NCBI GenBank assembly: GCA_902779665.1
Contig: CACZCN010000014.1
Span: forward strand, 1,403-65,402
From: an uncultured Prevotellaceae bacterium
Lineage (GTDB): Bacteria; Bacteroidota; Bacteroidia; Bacteroidales; Bacteroidaceae
Length of the DNA stretch: 64,000 nt
Reading direction: 5' to 3'
In this document: piece after piece, positions 3,041 to 64,000 of the stretch
Layout: every line of letters starts with the position of its first letter
How positions within the stretch are numbered: position 1 is the first letter of the stretch
Position numbers and translations under genes: made by a program
The notes under the pieces: model-generated
Databases searched by the model: none
What the model was told of the DNA's origin: nothing
What the model saw: only the letters and a program-made list of their open reading frames with translations

Positions 3041-3940
3041 TTGAAATTGCAGATGATCTCACGTGACCAGAAAATATACAGAGTGACATTGACAGGCAGT
3101 ATTGTGAACATGATACTGCTCGTGATGAAGTTTGTGGCGGGAATACTCGGAAACTCTGCTGCAATGATTGCCGACGCTGTACATTCACTTAGTGATTTCC
3201 TCACAGATATTGTCGTCATTGCACTCGTAAAGCTTAGTAGCAAGCCTGCCGACAAAGATCATGACTATGGTCACGGGAAGTACGAGACCATTGCTACGTC
3301 CATTATCGGTATGGCACTTGTCGTAGTTGCCGTCATGCTTGCTTGGAATGGAATTGAGAAAATCATTTTCGTAATAAAAGGTGGAGAGATAGAATCTCCA
3401 TGTATGATTGCCTTTGTCGCAGCTGTTGTAAGTATCTTGTTGAAGGAGTGGGTGTTCCGCGTTACGAAGAAAGTAGCACTTGAAGTGAATTCGCAAGCCT
3501 TAGAAGCCAATGCCTGGCACCACAGAAGCGATGCGTTCTCGTCAATAGGTACGGCTATAGGCATTGGTGGAGCGGTACTCTTAGGTAATAAATGGGTTGT
3601 CCTCGACCCTATCGCCGCAGTCATCGTGAGCGTCCTTATCTTCATCACAGCCTTCCGACTTCTTCGTCAAGCTTCAGGTGAACTTCTTGAGGAAAGTCTT
3701 CCAAAGGAAACGGAGGATAAGATTGAGGCTATCGTTTATCAAGATTCGCTCGTCAGCGACATACATAATCTTCATACCCGCAGGATTGGAAGTATCATAG
3801 CCATAGAAATGCATCTTCGTCTTCCTGGCGATATTAGTCTTGAGGAATCCCATCGTCACGCTACCGCTATCGAGCGTGCGCTAAGGGATGAATTTGGCTC
3901 TGGAACACATATTATGCTGCATATCGAGCCTGTAAAATAA
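3041..3940 (+). CDS. cation diffusion facilitator (FieF-like) metal efflux transporter
   Basis: ADAVHSLSD, HDYGHGKYE, WHHRSDA motifs and C-terminal HIEP; start could be ATG 3053. Confidence 0.93.
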   Translation: MKLQMISRDQKIYRVTLTGSIVNMILLVMKFVAGILGNSAAMIADAVHSLSDFLTDIVVIALVKLSSKPADKDHDYGHGKYETIATSIIGMALVVVAVMLAWNGIEKIIFVIKGGEIESPCMIAFVAAVVSILLKEWVFRVTKKVALEVNSQALEANAWHHRSDAFSSIGTAIGIGGAVLLGNKWVVLDPIAAVIVSVLIFITAFRLLRQASGELLEESLPKETEDKIEAIVYQDSLVSDIHNLHTRRIGSIIAIEMHLRLPGDISLEESHRHATAIERALRDEFGSGTHIMLHIEPVK

Positions 3941-25204: not shown

Positions 25205-26216
25205 ATATCTTCTTGGTACTAAGCAACCCGCATGCAGCAAATATATCCTGTCCTCGGGATGCTCTTATTGTTGTAAAGATGCCATGCTGTGTGAGATAGT
25301 CGCGCAGCACCTCCATTTTCTTCTCGTCGGATGTCTTCAAAGGCACATCAGGAATCTGGTGGAACCTTATCAGATTGATTCTGCAATCCAAGCCCTTCAG
25401 CAGATTGACAATTGCACGTGCATGAGTCATGGAATCGTTCAAACCGTCAAATACGATGTACTCGAATGACAGTCTTCTCTGATGTGAGAAGTCATATTGT
25501 CTTAGCAATTCCACTATCTCCTCAATGCCCATACCCTTTTGTGCCGGCATCAGCGTGGCACGCTGTTCGGAAATCGGTGAATGCAGACTAATTGCAACGT
25601 GACATTCGCTTTCATCGAGGAATCGCTTCAGTTTGTTGCGCACCCCCACGCTGCTCACCGTTATTCTCTTAGGGCTCCAGGCATATCCCCAATCTGCCGT
25701 CAACACCTCCGTTGCACGAAGCACGTTGTCGAGGTTGTCCATCGGCTCGCCCTGTCCCATGAAAACGATGTTTGTCAGGCGTTCTGCCTCTGGAAGTGAG
25801 TATATCTGGTTGAGAATGTCAGCCGCAGTAAGCGAGCCTTCAAATCCCTGCTTGCCTGTCTGACAGAAGAGGCAGTTCATCTTACAGCCCACCTGACACG
25901 ATACACACAAAGTTGCGCGGTCCTTGTCGGGAATGAAGACGGTTTCCACGAACTTCCCTGAAGCAACAGGAAACAGATACTTGATAGTACCGTCAACCGA
26001 ATACTGGGCATCAATATGCTCCATTACACCGATGCAATACTGCTCTGCAAGCTTTTCGCGATTTGCCTTTGAGATATTCGTCATCTCTTCAATATCACGA
26101 ACATGGGAGACGTAAATCCACTTCGCAATCTGTCCTCCGGTGAAAGCAGGCATTCCAAGGGAGCGAGCAACTTCCTTGAGTTCTGCAAGTGTCATTCCGA
26201 GTAATGGAGTCTTCAT
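25191..26216 (-). CDS. rlmN: dual-specificity RNA methyltransferase, radical SAM
   Basis: CVSCQVGCKMNCLFC, VFMGQGEP, ISLHSP, RGQDIFAACG; start ATG 26216. Confidence 0.96.
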   Translation of the reverse strand: MKTPLLGMTLAELKEVARSLGMPAFTGGQIAKWIYVSHVRDIEEMTNISKANREKLAEQYCIGVMEHIDAQYSVDGTIKYLFPVASGKFVETVFIPDKDRATLCVSCQVGCKMNCLFCQTGKQGFEGSLTAADILNQIYSLPEAERLTNIVFMGQGEPMDNLDNVLRATEVLTADWGYAWSPKRITVSSVGVRNKLKRFLDESECHVAISLHSPISEQRATLMPAQKGMGIEEIVELLRQYDFSHQRRLSFEYIVFDGLNDSMTHARAIVNLLKGLDCRINLIRFHQIPDVPLKTSDEKKMEVLRDYLTQHGIFTTIRASRGQDIFAACGLLSTKKIYERT

Positions 26217-26256: not shown

Positions 26257-26335
26257 GCAACGAGCGAGGCATCCTCGCACGCAGTAAAAGTGCGTGTCTG
26301 CTATCAATGCAGGCGCACGTTTCAATTTTGCAAGT
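26257..26335 (-). ncRNA. promoter-anchored 79-bp structured element, copy C (rlmN leader)
   Basis: On - strand follows TAACTTTGC and ends CGTTGC; shares ACGTGCGC...ACACGCAC...CGAGG(A)TG core with 48352 and 58462. Confidence 0.65.
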
Positions 26336-26336
26336 G

Positions 26337-26344
26337 CAAAGTTA
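26337..26344 (-). promoter_or_regulatory. -7 box TAACTTTG for the rlmN operon
   Basis: Reverse complement CAAAGTTA. Confidence 0.7.
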
Positions 26345-46806: not shown

Positions 46807-48196
<1,390 letters not shown>

Positions 48197-48299
48197 TCAA
48201 TAAACATGATAAAACCGACAATAAAAAATGCAGAATGTCTGATTGTTCTGATTATATGATTTATATGTCAGAATCATCAGTTAAATTATGTTAGAAAAA

Positions 48300-48340
48300 C
48301 CAACCTAAGGCTAAAAGTTTTCTTAGGTTGGCTTTTTTTT
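48300..48340 (+). terminator. intrinsic terminator
   Basis: CCAACCTAAG...CTTAGGTTGG followed by 8 T. Confidence 0.75.
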
Positions 48341-48342
48341 CT

Positions 48343-48350
48343 TAACTTTG
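48343..48350 (+). promoter_or_regulatory. -7 box TAACTTTG for ino1
   Basis: Directly precedes the tandem element. Confidence 0.7.
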
Positions 48351-48351
48351 C

Positions 48352-48582
48352 GCTCGCTAAATGAAACGTGCGCCAGCCTTCGGGCTGACATGCACTTTTA
48401 GCTTCACGCGAGGTGATTCGCACGTTGCGCTCGCTAAATGAAACGTGCACCAGCCTTCGGGCTGACATGCACTTTTAGCTTCACGCGAGGTGATTCGCAC
48501 GTTGCGCTCGCTAAATGAAACGTGCGCCAGCCTTTGGGCTGACATGCACTTTTAGCTTCACGCGAGGTGATTTGCACGTTGC
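48352..48582 (+). repeat. three tandem 77-bp copies of the promoter-anchored structured element (locus A)
   Basis: TTGCGCTCGCTAAATGAAACGTGC recurs at 48348, 48425, 48502; copies differ at 1-2 positions; no spacers. Confidence 0.9.
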
Positions 48583-48614
48583 ATCTTAATCAAAGATATC
48601 AAAAACCTAAAATA

Positions 48615-49922
48615 ATGAAACAAAATAATGTAAAGCCTGCAGAAGGCAAATTGGGAATTCTTGTTGTCGGAAACGGAGCCGTGGCAACAACCTTCATGAC
48701 TGGCGTGCTTATGACCCGCAAGGGACTTACAAAGCCAATTGGTTCAATGACTCAATATGATAAGATTCGTGTTGGCAAGGGTGCAGACAAGAAATACCTC
48801 CATTACAAGGATATTGTCCCTATGACGGATCTGAAAGACATAGTATTCGGCTGCTGGGATGTATATCCTCAGAATGCATACCAAAGTGCTATGTATTGTG
48901 AAGTCCTCAAGGAAAAGGACATCAACCCTGTGAAGGACGAACTGGAGCAGATTGTTCCTATGAAGGCTGCATTCGACAAGAACTTTGCAAAACGACTTGA
49001 AGGCGACAACGTGAAAGACTGTAAGACACGTTGGGACATGGTCGAGGCGCTTCGTAAGGATATACGTGATTTCAAGACAGAAAAAGGATGTGCACGTATT
49101 GTTGTACTCTGGGCTGCCTCCACAGAAATCTATGTACCTGTAAATATGGAGGTACACGATACTTTGGAGCACTTGGAGGCTGCTATGAAGGCAAACGATA
49201 CTGAAAATATCGCCCCTTCTATGTGCTATGCGTATGCAGCTCTTGCAGAAGGAGCACCTTTCATCATGGGAGCTCCTAACACCACCGTTGATATTCCTGC
49301 TATGTGGGAAATGTCAGAAAAGACAAAGATGCCTATCGCTGGTAAGGATTTCAAGACCGGACAGACACTCGTGAAGTCTGGTTTCTCCCCTATTATCGGT
49401 ACTCGCTGCCTCGGACTTAGCGGTTGGTTCTCAACCAATATTCTTGGCAATCGTGACGGACTTGTACTTGACGAACCTGCAAACTTCCGTACTAAGGAGG
49501 TTTCAAAGCTTTCTACACTTGAGACAATTCTTAAGCCTGAAGATCAGCCAGACCTATATACTGATTATTATCACAAGGTCCGCATCAATTATTATCCACC
49601 TCGCAACGACAATAAGGAAGGATGGGATAATATCGACATATTCGGATGGATGGGCTATCCTATGCAGATAAAGATTAACTTCCTTTGTCGTGACTCTATC
49701 CTCGCTGCCCCACTCTGCCTTGACCTTTGTCTGTTGTCAGACCTTGCAGCTCGCGCAGGAAAATATGGAATACAGCGTTTCTTAAGTTTCTTCCTAAAGT
49801 CACCTATGCACGACTATACCAAGGGTGAAGAGGCTGTAAACCATCTGTATCAGCAATACACGATGCTGAAGAATGCGATTCGTGAAATGGGTGGTTACGA
49901 AGCCGATGAAGAGATTGATTAA
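48615..49922 (+). CDS. ino1: myo-inositol-1-phosphate synthase
   Basis: GNGAVATT, GKDFKTGQT, NILGNRDG, GDNKE-like NDNKEGWD, RDSILAAPL; start ATG 48615. Confidence 0.9.
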   Translation: MKQNNVKPAEGKLGILVVGNGAVATTFMTGVLMTRKGLTKPIGSMTQYDKIRVGKGADKKYLHYKDIVPMTDLKDIVFGCWDVYPQNAYQSAMYCEVLKEKDINPVKDELEQIVPMKAAFDKNFAKRLEGDNVKDCKTRWDMVEALRKDIRDFKTEKGCARIVVLWAASTEIYVPVNMEVHDTLEHLEAAMKANDTENIAPSMCYAYAALAEGAPFIMGAPNTTVDIPAMWEMSEKTKMPIAGKDFKTGQTLVKSGFSPIIGTRCLGLSGWFSTNILGNRDGLVLDEPANFRTKEVSKLSTLETILKPEDQPDLYTDYYHKVRINYYPPRNDNKEGWDNIDIFGWMGYPMQIKINFLCRDSILAAPLCLDLCLLSDLAARAGKYGIQRFLSFFLKSPMHDYTKGEEAVNHLYQQYTMLKNAIREMGGYEADEEID

Positions 49923-57427: not shown

Positions 57428-57560
57428 AGGGAGGGGAATAATTACCTTTTATCATCACGAGTAATTACATTAAAGTTTCGTTACTATCCACTCCCCTCCC
57501 TTTATGGGAAGTCCGATGTTGATAACATCGGAGTATGTGTCAGGGGCTGGGGGGTGGGTC
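57403..57560. repeat. REPIN-like C/G-rich inverted repeat with a nested 32-bp hairpin
   Basis: GACCCACCCCTGCCCCCTCCCATAAAGGGAGGGGA versus TCCCCTCCCTTTATGGGA[insert 57510-57541]AGGGGCTGGGGGGTGGGTC. Confidence 0.8.
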
Positions 57561-58363: not shown

Positions 58364-58393
58364 TCCGATGTTGATTACATCGGAGTATGTGAC
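58335..58393. repeat. REP-like arm plus second copy of the 32-bp hairpin
   Basis: AGCCTAACCAAGCCTTCCCAAA identical to 59921-59942; AGTCCGATGTTGATTACATCGGAGTATGTGAC at 58362-58393. Confidence 0.8.
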
Positions 58394-58453: not shown

Positions 58454-58461
58454 TAACTTTG
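58454..58461 (+). promoter_or_regulatory. -7 box TAACTTTG for the Fe-ADH gene
   Basis: Directly precedes element B. Confidence 0.7.
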
Positions 58462-58640
58462 CACTTGTCAAGCCGAAGGACGTGCGCCAGCCTTTGGGGC
58501 TGACACGCACTCTTGACTACGTACGAGGTGCAAAGCACGTTGTCACTTGTCAAGCCGAAGGGCTGACACGCACTCTTGACTACGTACGAGGTGCAAAGCA
58601 CGTTGTCACTTGTCAAGCCGAAGGACGTGCGCCAGCCTTT
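58462..58640 (+). repeat. tandem copies of the promoter-anchored structured element (locus B)
   Basis: CACTTGTCAAGCCGAAG at 58462, 58544, 58607; 82-bp unit, second copy lacks 19 bp, third truncated. Confidence 0.88.
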
Positions 58641-58734
58641 ATGAATCTAGGCTTACGCCGCTCTTTTATCAAAAGACGCTCAAATCCCATAAACTAAATG
58701 ATTTGCAAAAAATTAAATTATCTACTAAAAAATC

Positions 58735-62190: not shown

Positions 62191-62266
62191 TTCTTGTATG
62201 TTTATGCTTTGTATCGTAACTTTGCACTCGCAAATTCAACAAAAAGTAAAAAGTAAGACAAATACT

Positions 62267-64000
62267 ATGACAAAAAGAATTGTATTCTTGGTAATTGCGT
62301 TGGCAAGCCTCTGCTTGACATCCCACGCACAAATCACCCAGACCATTAGAGGCGTCGTAACTGATGCCGTAACACGTGAACCTCTCCCATTCGCAACCGT
62401 TCAGGTCGATAACTCCAAAGATAAGGTATGCATCACCGATAGCGTCGGAAAATTTCAGATTACAGGCATTACCGTAGGACGTCACACCGTGCGTTGTAAC
62501 TATGTAGGTTTCCAAACCGTTGACCTCAGCGATGTGCTCGTTACCTCTGCTAAGGAAACCAATATTGATATCCGACTTCAGGAAGATCAGACCACCCTTC
62601 AGGATGTTGTGGTTCGTCCTAATCTCGCAAAGGAGAACACCTTAAATAAGATGGTACTCACAGGCGGACGTATGTTCAGCATCGAGGAGGCAAGCCGATA
62701 TGCAGGCGGTTTCGATGACCCCGCACGTCTGGCAAGCTCTTTCTCTGGAGTTGCTACAAGTGGTGCTACAAACGGTATTTCTATCCACGGTAATGCCCCT
62801 CACCTACTCTCTTGGCGATTGGAGGACATCGAGATTCCTAACCCTAACCATTTCTCTGACATCTCGGTACTCGGTGGCGGTATTTTCTCCTCACTCTCAG
62901 CTATGTGTATCGGAAACTCCGACTTCCTCACCTCTGCCTTCCCTGCAGAATACGGAAATGCAGTTTCTGGTGTGTTCGATATGAAGATGCGCAATGGTAA
63001 CGACAATAAGTACGAGCATGCTTTCCAGATTGGTGTGGCAGGTATCGATGTGGCTTCTGAAGGTCCGTTGAACAGAAAGACGGGTGCTTCCTATCTCGTA
63101 AACTACAGATACTCAATGACTGGTCTTGCCAGCAGAATGAAGCTTATTGACATGCAGGGGCAGGTAATGGACTATCAGGACCTTAACTTCAAGTTCAACA
63201 TCCCAACACGAAAGGCAGGCACATTCACCGTATGGGGAACAGGATTCTTCGACCACTTCCATCGCGAGTCTTCTCCAAAGGACTGGGAATCAATGTTTGA
63301 CGAGTGCTATGCGTTCAGCGACCAATGGATGGGTGCTATGGGCGTAGGACACGTTCTGCCTATGAAGCACGGACAGTTGAAGAGCAGCATTGGTGTGACA
63401 TACAACAAGGACGAGTTCACACAGGATGTATATAAAAACCTTCCTGACGACATCTATACAAGAGACAATACCGACGGACTGGAACGTGAACCTTTCTTCG
63501 CAGAGGCAAGAAGCTTTACAAACATTACAGCCCGTACCACCTATACACACCGTCATTCCAACCGCTGGCTGGCTCAGTATGGTGCCGTAGCTACAGCTAT
63601 GCTCTTCGATATGAATATCAGGACAGCATACGTTCTCCACGATAAGCTTCATACTATATGTGATAACGACGGCAGCACAACGCTTTTCTCTGGCTTCACG
63701 GCACATTCGTTCACGCTCAACCCAAAGACTACCCTCAACGCAGGATTCAACGTACAGCACCTTCTTCTCAATGGTGCTACAACCTTCGAGCCTCGTGCGA
63801 GCATGTCACACAAGCTGAGCGATGACATAAGCCTCGCTTTAGCCTACGGACTTCACAGCCGTGCGGAGAAAACCGATATCTATTTCACACGCAATATCCC
63901 ACAGCCTGATGAGAGTAACAACTGGAACCCTACGGTTGATCCAAACAGCGATGAACTTGTAAACAAGAAGCTCGGATTCACCAAGAGCCATCACCTCATG
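62267..64000 (+). CDS. TonB-dependent outer-membrane receptor with N-terminal carboxypeptidase-regulatory-like domain (runs off window)
   Basis: My translation: MTKRIVFLVIALASLCLTSHAQITQTIRGVVTDAVTREPLPFATV...RYAGGFDDPARL...IEIPNPNHF...FPAEYGNAVSGVFD; not in the ORF track, no stop seen in window. Confidence 0.88.
   Translation, partial: MTKRIVFLVIALASLCLTSHAQITQTIRGVVTDAVTREPLPFATVQVDNSKDKVCITDSVGKFQITGITVGRHTVRCNYVGFQTVDLSDVLVTSAKETNIDIRLQEDQTTLQDVVVRPNLAKENTLNKMVLTGGRMFSIEEASRYAGGFDDPARLASSFSGVATSGATNGISIHGNAPHLLSWRLEDIEIPNPNHFSDISVLGGGIFSSLSAMCIGNSDFLTSAFPAEYGNAVSGVFDMKMRNGNDNKYEHAFQIGVAGIDVASEGPLNRKTGASYLVNYRYSMTGLASRMKLIDMQGQVMDYQDLNFKFNIPTRKAGTFTVWGTGFFDHFHRESSPKDWESMFDECYAFSDQWMGAMGVGHVLPMKHGQLKSSIGVTYNKDEFTQDVYKNLPDDIYTRDNTDGLEREPFFAEARSFTNITARTTYTHRHSNRWLAQYGAVATAMLFDMNIRTAYVLHDKLHTICDNDGSTTLFSGFTAHSFTLNPKTTLNAGFNVQHLLLNGATTFEPRASMSHKLSDDISLALAYGLHSRAEKTDIYFTRNIPQPDESNNWNPTVDPNSDELVNKKLGFTKSHHLM

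Follow-up and report, generated by a model that had tools for sequence, protein, structure and literature searches.

In a 64,000-nucleotide stretch of DNA from an uncultured Prevotellaceae bacterium (contig CACZCN010000014.1, positions 1,403 to 65,402; the whole stretch is called the window here) three arrays of one family of short repeats, A, B and C, are found, and the first base of each array directly follows the 3' end of a TAACTTTG -7 box of a host promoter. We consider it probable that this repeat is a non-autonomous insertion element, specific for site as well as orientation, that forms hairpins, is mobilised in trans and serves as the co-transcribed 5' leader of host RNAs. The finding is real and far beyond chance, with four matches of the core pattern in the window compared to 0.00 expected. 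The original prediction had pointed out the three loci, whose coordinates and sequences are as it gave them, and the core that they share.

Array A comprises three units in front of ino1, array B two units and a truncated variant in front of an Fe-ADH gene, and array C a single unit in front of rlmN; Pfam identifications are on record for ino1, adh, an AMP-binding gene and rlmN. The -7 box of ino1 (48343–48350, plus strand) is followed by the type I unit A1 (48351–48427), which scores 78.7 bits with R1, a covariation model built from units only with no promoter included, and by units A2 (48428–48504) and A3 (48505–48581), all of 77 nt, whereupon the host leader CATCTTAATC follows and the ATG of ino1 at 48615. 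Tandem Repeats Finder describes this array with a period of 77, 3.1 copies and 97% matches. On the same strand, the box of the Fe-ADH gene (58454–58461) is followed by unit B1 (58462–58542; 81 nt, 69.9 bits), which belongs to a subfamily with GTCAAG/CTTGAC in helix P1 (see below), by an extra T at 58543, by unit B2 (58544–58605) with an internal deletion of 18 nt (ACGTGCGCCAGCCTTTGG is missing) and another T, and by unit B3 (58607–58637), of which only the left end remains (CACTTG to ACGTGCGCCAGCC). Attached to B3 is a 46-mer (58638–58683; TTTATGAATCTAGGCTTACGCCGCTCTTTTATCAAAAGACGCTCAA), a "type II" central module replacing the type I hairpin, the right end of which is missing here and which ends about 50 nt before the Fe-ADH start. 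B2 is complete in the sister contig L170, which stems from a public scaffold that matches the window elsewhere too and in this array differs by the 18-nt deletion. Unit C (26258–26336, minus strand; 79 nt, 74.7 bits) is a single copy with a CTGC/GCAG variant of helix P3 between the box of rlmN (26337–26344) and the host leader CAATCGATTCG, with the rlmN ATG at 26216.

The same placement is found throughout the family. Among 57 arrays, taken from nine species known as metagenome-assembled genomes (MAGs) and from the window, the core lies 15–18 nt after TAnnTTTG in about 50, meaning that base 1 of the unit directly follows the G. Most of the exceptions resolve: two have a further, diverged upstream unit that itself adjoins a box, one array is cut by the contig end, and only L022 (AAAAGTTG) is without a box. 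Promoter targeting, originally proposed from three loci, is thereby borne out, as essentially every array in the nine species adjoins TAnnTTTG. Moreover, model R1 found about ten extra loci, all of which begin directly after TAnnTTTG, and loose ends of rumen metagenome contigs show identical junctions of box and unit. Since the nn dinucleotide of the box varies (AC, AT, TC, CC, TT, AG, TA) and the sequences 5' of it are unrelated from locus to locus, the box is the target and not part of the element. How large is this target? Within the window 28 of 163 intergenic TTTG (17%) and eight of 22 intergenic TTTGCA (36%) are located in TAnnTTTG boxes, and with fractions this low a target of 4–6 nt combined with loss of genic insertions cannot give the observed pattern. 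Boxes reading TAAC are enriched about four-fold among occupied promoters (22/57 vs 12/125).

Every unit is oriented towards the downstream gene. Named from their N-terminal sequences, these genes include asnA, leuA, ftsZ, fbaA, clpS, lon, purH and genes for rubredoxin, sensor kinases and transporters, in addition to ino1, rlmN and adh and one RNase P RNA gene recognised by its Rfam match, and they are as unrelated as the first three genes had indicated. At the RNase P locus (L064, 209–736, minus strand) one unit separates the RNase P RNA gene (RF00010, 186.9 bits) from a -7 box, so that the precursor of a non-coding RNA gets the leader as well. A riboswitch or conserved cis-leader would be expected at a coherent set of genes across orthologues; found were unrelated genes and, as described below, presence and absence of the element in combination with identical proteins. 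Nor do the data resemble an invertible promoter switch, as about 110 units share one orientation relative to the -7 box; candidate matches to inverted alleles proved to be ordinary units seen on the opposite strand. TAnnTTTGCA(Y)TCG is a common form of the native promoters of these genomes. In L011 (~3580–3712) a promoter segment (caattcgggatttagTAACTTTGCACTTG) is duplicated about 85 nt apart, and the first copy is element-free and the second occupied.

Strains differ in the presence of the element. A contig of the same species as the window (L090), found like L091 and L092 in a metagenome search for ino1 loci, encodes an Ino1 that is 100% identical and has both flanks at 96–97.5% nucleotide identity, and its ino1 promoter is empty, reading TTAACTTTG followed by CATC. 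The flanks meet with a 7-nt overlap, and the whole difference is thus a block of 3 x 77 nt. The same empty reading is found in L092 (Ino1 96% identical at the amino acid level), and L091 (97%) has one unit; 76 more distant ino1 loci from the metagenome search are without the element. Thus, the empty form TAACTTTGCATC predicted for ino1 exists in real relatives. For rlmN, relatives at 98, 97 and 92% amino acid identity have empty promoters as well (TATCTTTG followed by CATTCG, TATCTTTG followed by CACGG and TACCTTTG followed by CATAAA), as had been anticipated, albeit with TATC or TACC boxes instead of TAAC and with a leader start slightly off the predicted CAATCG. These empty sites, the docking at the box, and the negative Rfam search and the RNA contigs joining the last unit to ino1 that are reported below support the earlier proposal of a non-autonomous element that enters at the -7 box. 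Empty and filled alleles overlap by 7–8 nt with imperfect identity. Empty sites are devoid of the left segment (CGCTCGCTAAATGAA at ino1), which is accordingly part of the element; apart from the ambiguous TTG(C), no target sequence is duplicated. On the same grounds a host-derived left end with a templated inverted copy was rejected, the empty ino1 site being without the CGCTCGCTAAATGAA segment, and a 9-bp target duplication fails at ino1.

Copy number is equally variable. Among contigs with an Ino1 identical to that of the window, the ino1 promoter is followed by three units in the window, L083 and L084, by four in L055, by one unit and a variant unit in L082 and by a truncated single unit in L086. 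At many loci several MAG species carry the element in orthologous positions, and frequently with unequal numbers of copies, which indicates that insertions can persist and that arrays change quickly. It is common to find incomplete trailing units, hybrid right ends, and deletions inside units at short repeats; in one subfamily the internal junctions carry an additional T (GTTGT-CAC), and "1.25-copy" forms are found at many loci. Changes of array length probably need only recombination or slippage. The idea that tandem copies arise by re-insertion at the regenerated TTGC could not be established; the extra T and the 1.25-copy forms fit unequal recombination or slippage better. In L005 (3372–3582 and 6060–6214) units end in a perfect -7 box (GTGCGAGCCTAAGTTTG followed by CACTC) instead of in GCACGTTG, and these hybrid right ends place a promoter box before every unit, with the identical junction at two loci of one genome. 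The ino1 locus shows a second structural polymorphism: as the comparison of L084 and L055 with the window (46943–48196) reveals, an esterase gene upstream of ino1 is absent in some strains, in which a GH3 gene lies directly upstream.

Each unit begins with CAYTCG, followed by an A-rich, locus-specific strand (the 5' strand of helix P1) and a purine linker that ends in an invariant AC. Then come GTGCG-C-CAGCC, a loop and GGCTG-ACA-CGCAC, forming helices P2 and P3, a T, the T-rich 3' strand of P1, TTC-GTG, CGAGG(A)TGC..GCAC, GTTG and sometimes a T. In short, the left end reads CAYTCG..RRACGTGCGCC and the right end CGTGCGAGG..GCACGTTG. Helix P0 pairs nt 1–3 with the 3 nt before CGAGG, P1 pairs nt 6–11 with the 6 nt after GCAC-T, P2 (GTGCG/CGCAC) is almost invariant and P3 is formed by CAGCC/GGCTG. 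Near the 3' end P4 (GTGCGA/TCGCAC) constitutes an alternative to P0, with which it has the GTG in common, and it uses the stem GTGCG/CGCAC of P2 again, so that both end hairpins share it. The conserved ends flank at least three different centres, namely the P2/P3 hairpin of type I, the type II centre with the 46-mer, which is very abundant in rumen metagenomes, and a type III centre reading ACGGWCACC-GCTY..RAGC-GACAAGCCC. The 46-mer is identical at 46 of 46 positions in L079 (4497–4542), an unrelated locus of a different MAG, and occurs also in L047 (6144–6189); in rumen metagenomes its contig depth is 250–840 as compared to 3–21 for unique flank, and it may be either a second inserted element or an alternative cargo.

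The compensated stem changes noticed between the three loci of the window extend to the whole family. By the overall count four helices covary, among them P0, P1 and P3. In a fixed-register test, used instead of a free-register stem search that is too permissive in A/T-rich strands, P1 has 5.3 of 6 Watson-Crick pairs within units vs 3.5 between units, a value that none of 5000 permutations reaches. P1 occurs as at least 12 different perfect Watson-Crick helices and P0 as CAC/GTG, CAT/ATG, CGC/GCG, CAA/TTG and TAC/GTA, and this number of distinct helix types is independent of structure fitting and relatedness. A model-based alignment of 97 distinct units has 93% of its cells paired vs 82% in shuffles and 240 double-change cells vs 67, which none of 500 shuffles reaches, both counts leaning towards the fitted structure and being inflated by relatedness; slid controls have 24–46% paired. 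Mismatches in P0 and P1 comprise 12 G-T vs 16 A-C and give no strand signal, and z-scores for the folding of single units are modest (-1.1 to -2.7).

Several structural details of the original prediction need adjustment. The proposed pairing of CRCTYG with CGAGGTG is replaced by P0, as the covarying partners of nt 1–3 are the three nucleotides just 5' of CGAGG. The C(UUCG)G loop noted for array A is present only in A1 and A2, and the loop varies elsewhere in the family. The inverted repeat ACGTGC/GCACGT exists; the core is invariant to nearly invariant and thereby beyond the reach of covariation. A pseudoknot between CCAAAGG and the loop CCTTTGG was dropped, as it holds in one subfamily only. 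Two positions switch again and again, even from one unit to the next (GCGCC/GCACC and ACACGCAC/ACATGCAC, for example at 48372/48449 and 48391 of the window). They form one base pair (GC 55, AU 15, GU 14, other 10), and both flips are transitions of the CpG type, which might point to cytosine methylation and deamination.

The anatomy differs from that of a classical miniature inverted-repeat transposable element: the ends, CAYTCG and GCACGTTG, are not terminal inverted repeats, the left copy of the sole inverted repeat (AACGTGCG/CGCACGTT) lies 16–19 nt inside the left end, and instead of a target duplication of fixed length the flanks at ino1 share only TTGC (TTTG-CGCTCG ... GTTG-CATCTT). In integron attC sites the boxes R'' (RYYYAAC) and R' (GTTRRRY) pair in the folded strand; the unit junction GTTGCAC fits GTTRRRY at 6 of 7 positions, and there is no RYYYAAC partner in the unit.

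How widespread is the family? A scan of the core pattern over one genome per species (185,579 species) yielded about 55 loci distributed over nine MAG species of rumen Prevotellaceae, the remaining matches being chance matches in high-GC genomes. In total, about 110 further units of 77–83 bp were collected from nine rumen Prevotellaceae MAG species and metagenome contigs. In cattle rumen metagenomes the contig depth of the core is 20–30 times that of the flank specific for array A. Copies at different loci diverge by 15–30%, and many are common to orthologous loci of different MAG species. Rfam 15 has no family that matches anywhere in the window at the gathering threshold, in line with what had been expected; at E<=10 the region 48250–48700 gave chance-level matches only, none of them centred on the units, and in 17 related loci only the downstream RNase P RNA and tRNAs were matched. 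BLAST searches of phage and plasmid collections gave no match to the element, two scans of viral contigs gave nothing or chance matches in high-GC phages, and a literature search by sequence and by topic turned up no account of the element. FopS and BrickBuilt were considered as its identity and judged different from their published descriptions. Measured against Rfam, the annotated collections and the literature that can be searched, the family is new. In one subfamily, with units containing GTCAAACC, runs of short-period repeats (GGTGTTGGGTGTTAGGTGAT, TCCGTTGTAAGTCCGTTCC and CTCTAACCTCTAACC among them) follow downstream of the units with no open reading frame (ORF) nearby (L010, L033, L050, L059, L063, L070 and L071), and as the upstream regions of these units are alike too, they may be part of a larger composite repeat.

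With insertion directly 3' of TAnnTTTG in primary-sigma promoters and always in the sense of the gene, the -33 and -7 boxes are left intact, and the promoter can be expected to remain active. For a flavobacterium the position of TAnnTTTG is given as -12 to -5 (PMC9723704). Transcription would accordingly be expected to begin about 5–7 nt inside the element, making P1 the 5'-terminal stem and the unit or array the 5' leader of the RNA. Contigs assembled from metatranscriptomes contain units and unit-unit junctions, and an RNA contig of 472 nt runs from unit A3 into ino1 (48518–48989); among the RNA contigs none covers 48150–48352. These data fit co-transcription from the docked promoter. The 5' strand of P0 (nt 1–3, corresponding to -4 to -2) is expected to be untranscribed in first or single units and yet covaries, suggesting a constraint at the level of DNA, and the position of P0 upstream of the expected start together with the equal numbers of G-T and A-C mismatches suggests that at least part of the structure matters as DNA. 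On the RNA a 5'-terminal stem-loop would likely stabilise the transcript or partly attenuate transcription. The GC-rich P2/P3 hairpin followed by 5–7 T in 8 nt is terminator-like; a simple terminator scan called none on the units and is uninformative, because its loop limit also misses a genuine upstream terminator.

By which mechanism could such units be mobilised? It is possible, albeit far from assured, that a HUH/Y1 transposase supplied in trans moves them in single-stranded form, as happens with IS200/IS605. In IS608 one cleavage falls 3' of TTAC, at a distance of 19 nt on the 5' side of the left hairpin's foot, and the other 3' of TCAA, beyond the right hairpin; each site is recognised through the four nucleotides immediately 5' of the respective hairpin (AAAG and GAAT, with AAAG reading TTAC). 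IS608 moves via a single-stranded circle and leaves no target duplication (PMC3201880, PMC5934647). Like IS200/IS605 elements and PATEs, the units have subterminal hairpins on one strand at both ends with a common stem sequence (P2/P3 on the left, P4 on the right), and they resemble IS200/IS605 further in lacking terminal inverted repeats and in inserting on the 3' side of a fixed T-rich tetranucleotide, always in the same orientation, with no duplication and with empty sites that are precise. The left cleavage site would be 17–21 nt from the hairpin foot, comparable to the 19 nt of IS608, and RRAC with its invariant AC, located 5' of the GTGCG foot, could pair with TTTG in the register of AAAG and TTAC, neither partner varying. 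For the right end the guide candidate CTTC matches GTTG at the outer positions only. The distance of TTTG from the GTGCG foot, the stem shared by the end hairpins, RRAC and the GTTG end make IS200/IS605 the best anatomical match. In such a scheme cleavage 3' of TTTG, which may be read by the guide-like RRAC beside the left hairpin, and a second cleavage 3' of the element's own GTTG would lead to precise excision and insertion without target duplication, a trans-acting protein would read the invariant parts of the unit, and arrays would grow and shrink by unequal recombination or slippage, perhaps also by re-insertion.

A number of observations weigh against a trans-mobilised element of this kind. 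No tnpA was found and no transposase or recombinase is linked to the element. In line with what had been stated before, a Pfam scan of 50 ORFs of the window, which left out two ORFs near the 3' end (from ~62270, and 63290–63760), revealed no transposase or integrase domain; a crude motif scan for Y1-HUH enzymes and tyrosine recombinases in about 0.8 Mb of loaded Prevotellaceae DNA, of low sensitivity, also gave nothing, and when the loaded loci were searched by nhmmer and by the covariation model for an autonomous parent sharing these ends, only short partial ends were recovered. Furthermore, a 4-nt target of the IS200/IS605 type cannot by itself explain the exclusive use of the full 8-nt -7 box, which is the effective target here, or the enrichment of TAAC. 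In contrast to IS608, the right cleavage site would be directly after the hairpin and not 10 nt away, and the left hairpin is nested in the outer helices P0 and P1, which IS608 lacks; tandem arrays and constant transcription as a leader are also unlike IS200/IS605. The extra-T junctions, the 1.25-copy forms and the true-box right ends of L005 fit recombination better than cut-and-paste, and the divergence of 15–30% together with the sharing of orthologous sites suggests that transposition is rare and that vertical inheritance with change of copy number accounts for much of the pattern. The RNA evidence, finally, consists of assembled contigs only. A more daring extension, which we hold to be quite improbable, would be a HUH-type single-strand transposon that targets transcription bubbles, entering only TTTG that is single-stranded on the non-template strand of primary-sigma open complexes, with the arrays acting as a heritable, fast-changing expression dial for a few per cent of rumen Prevotellaceae genes. 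Bubble targeting would explain the insertion at -5/-4, the sense orientation and the intact promoter that now transcribes the element. GC skew, inspected for replication-strand bias, tracks gene orientation only and is uninformative.

Could the same element be moved as double-stranded DNA? An IntDOT-type tyrosine recombinase from a CTnDOT-like conjugative element, cutting at TTT/GC with a 7-bp overlap of which the last 5 bp are free to differ, is an unlikely candidate. TTTGCNNNNN is common to attDOT and every known attB site, top-strand cleavage takes place at the T-G step, and the coupling sequence of 5 bp is heterologous (PMC2817482, PMC2034462). The junctions of the units (TAnnTTT/GC and GTT/GC) and the imperfect 7–8 nt overlap at empty sites have this form, and the first six nucleotides of the unit resemble native leader starts (CAYTCG) and need not match them, as CGCTCG vs CATCTT at ino1 illustrates. 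The longer consensus of IntDOT sites, GTAnnTTTGC, equals a -7 box. Recognition of 8–10 bp would explain the specificity for the box, and the similarity of the unit end CACGTTGC to AACTTTGC the preference for TAAC; some right ends are even true -7 boxes. However, CTnDOT itself is large and conjugative and has arm-type sites and its own integrase, and the unit is a gene-less, hairpin-structured tandem repeat of 77–83 bp. A double-stranded circle or loop of 77 bp is very small for synapsis by a tyrosine recombinase, the overlap is accompanied neither by arm-type sites nor by inverted core sites, with no inverted repeat directly around GCACTCG, a double-strand reaction would have no use for the covarying hairpins, the extra T of the GTTGT-CAC junctions stays unexplained, and no integrase was seen near any copy in the ORF scan of the window and the low-sensitivity motif scan of the loci. 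Alternatively, no dedicated enzyme may be involved and the units may spread by microhomology-mediated template switching or ectopic gene conversion over some 9–13 shared nucleotides (AC-TTTGCAYTCG and AC-GTTGCAYTCG), with slippage at hairpins altering the arrays, an explanation that we regard as just as unlikely as the previous one. The overlap of empty and filled alleles by imperfect homology, the native promoters reading TAnnTTTGCA(Y)TCG, the enrichment of TAAC boxes, which lengthen the homology, the rapid change of copy number between strains with identical proteins, the common partial units, hybrid ends and internal deletions, and the failure of the same two scans to find a transposase would all be accommodated. 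Unaccounted for is the near-invariant core beside freely covarying stems, a contrast that points to a partner reading the sequence, and so are the conserved ends around three different centres; moreover, about 10 nt of homology will only rarely permit template switching from one unlinked locus to another, yet the occupied loci probably number on the order of a hundred per genome.

Two further explanations place the function in the RNA. A cis-acting leader kept by selection without real mobility, be it a stabilising hairpin, a leaky terminator or attenuator tuned by copy number, or a protein-binding leader, would agree with the invariable sense position between promoter and gene, with co-transcription, with the strong covariation, with the terminator-like sequence and with P1 lying at the first nucleotides of the RNA if the box is at -12 to -5. 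We nevertheless consider it improbable, as the downstream genes are unrelated and include RNase P RNA, strains with identical proteins have from none to four copies, P0 uses untranscribed nucleotides, wobble pairs are not in excess over A-C mismatches and folding z-scores are modest, and the terminator scan, itself uninformative, called nothing. An effect of the RNA can coexist with mobility, so that this explanation is a rival only in its "not mobile" form. Least probable of all is that every unit encodes a copy of a multicopy small RNA (sRNA), driven by the adjacent promoter and ending at the unit's own hairpin. FopS of Bacteroides are multicopy sRNAs of 65–70 nt with canonical primary-sigma promoters (PMC11697453), and the unit core reaches an RNA contig depth of 134 vs about 38 for ino1 in X25, the core depth pooling many loci. 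There is, however, no Rfam match, even though the consensus structure of FopS is deposited there (PMC11697453), no single-stranded seed is conserved and the 5' part is the most variable region, and the units stand in tandem before ORFs with RNA contigs reading through into coding sequence. FopS/GibS, like the element, form multicopy units of about 65–80 nt directly after canonical primary-sigma promoters in Bacteroidales (PMC11697453); unlike the element they have a conserved seed and a terminator, stand alone, are not in tandem and are not reported to be polymorphic between strains, and they do not match it in sequence.

Other families of small repeats share single features with the element. 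BOX of the pneumococcus, Correia/CREE of Neisseria, ERIC and BrickBuilt are likewise small, modular, intergenic and non-autonomous, vary in the number of internal modules and are transcribed with neighbouring genes, the expression of which they can alter; BrickBuilt of Porphyromonas gingivalis is an example from the Bacteroidota with an internal minisatellite (PMC4596501). They differ in having inverted-repeat ends and/or target duplications and a loose position relative to genes, and for none of them has a fixed docking base between the -10/-7 element and the start site been described. REP/BIME sequences with RAYT (TnpA-REP) resemble the units as short, high-copy extragenic palindromes with covarying stems that a domesticated HUH enzyme probably processes as hairpins of single-stranded DNA. 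REPs carry a 5' GTAG. They lie mostly between or after genes, often as inverted pairs, unlike the units, which are direct repeats locked to promoter cores.

We know of no earlier small bacterial repeat that docks at a fixed base inside the core promoter. If confirmed, the element would be the first at such a position, between the -10/-7 element and the start site, and it would rewrite the 5' ends of many housekeeping transcripts and spare their promoters. Being abundant in a dominant rumen genus and hypervariable between strains, it could be a major unrecognised source of differences in expression between strains. The question arises whether the promoter is recognised via the single strands of the open complex or by a recombinase reading the -7 box, and whether tandem leader modules tune mRNA stability or read-through. 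In practical terms, the units break short-read assemblies at promoters and could serve as strain markers, and the chemistry of docking could help tools for promoter-proximal insertion in Bacteroidota.

The element is present at three of the four TAACTTTG sites of the window. At the fourth (62217–62240, plus strand) the box is followed by CACTCGCAAATT, which equals the first 12 nt of the units in L004 and L079, and then by an unrelated leader; the core is absent. This site may be a solo left end or footprint left by recombination between flanking partial repeats, or simply a native leader start, and confidence in a footprint is low because native leaders here also begin with CAYTCG.

Another repeat family of the window is a 28-nt hairpin (TCCGATGTTGATWACATCGGAGTATGTG; 57512–57539 and 58364–58391), of which 11 more copies were seen in the loci, including L045 from 2941 and L064 from 3142. 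As a rule ..CCCTCCC..GGGAAG stands before it and TCAGGGG after it. Within two units (L045 and L064:3076) this hairpin sits inside the loop of the right-end hairpin, just after CGAGGAAG, which indicates that small elements nest in one another here.

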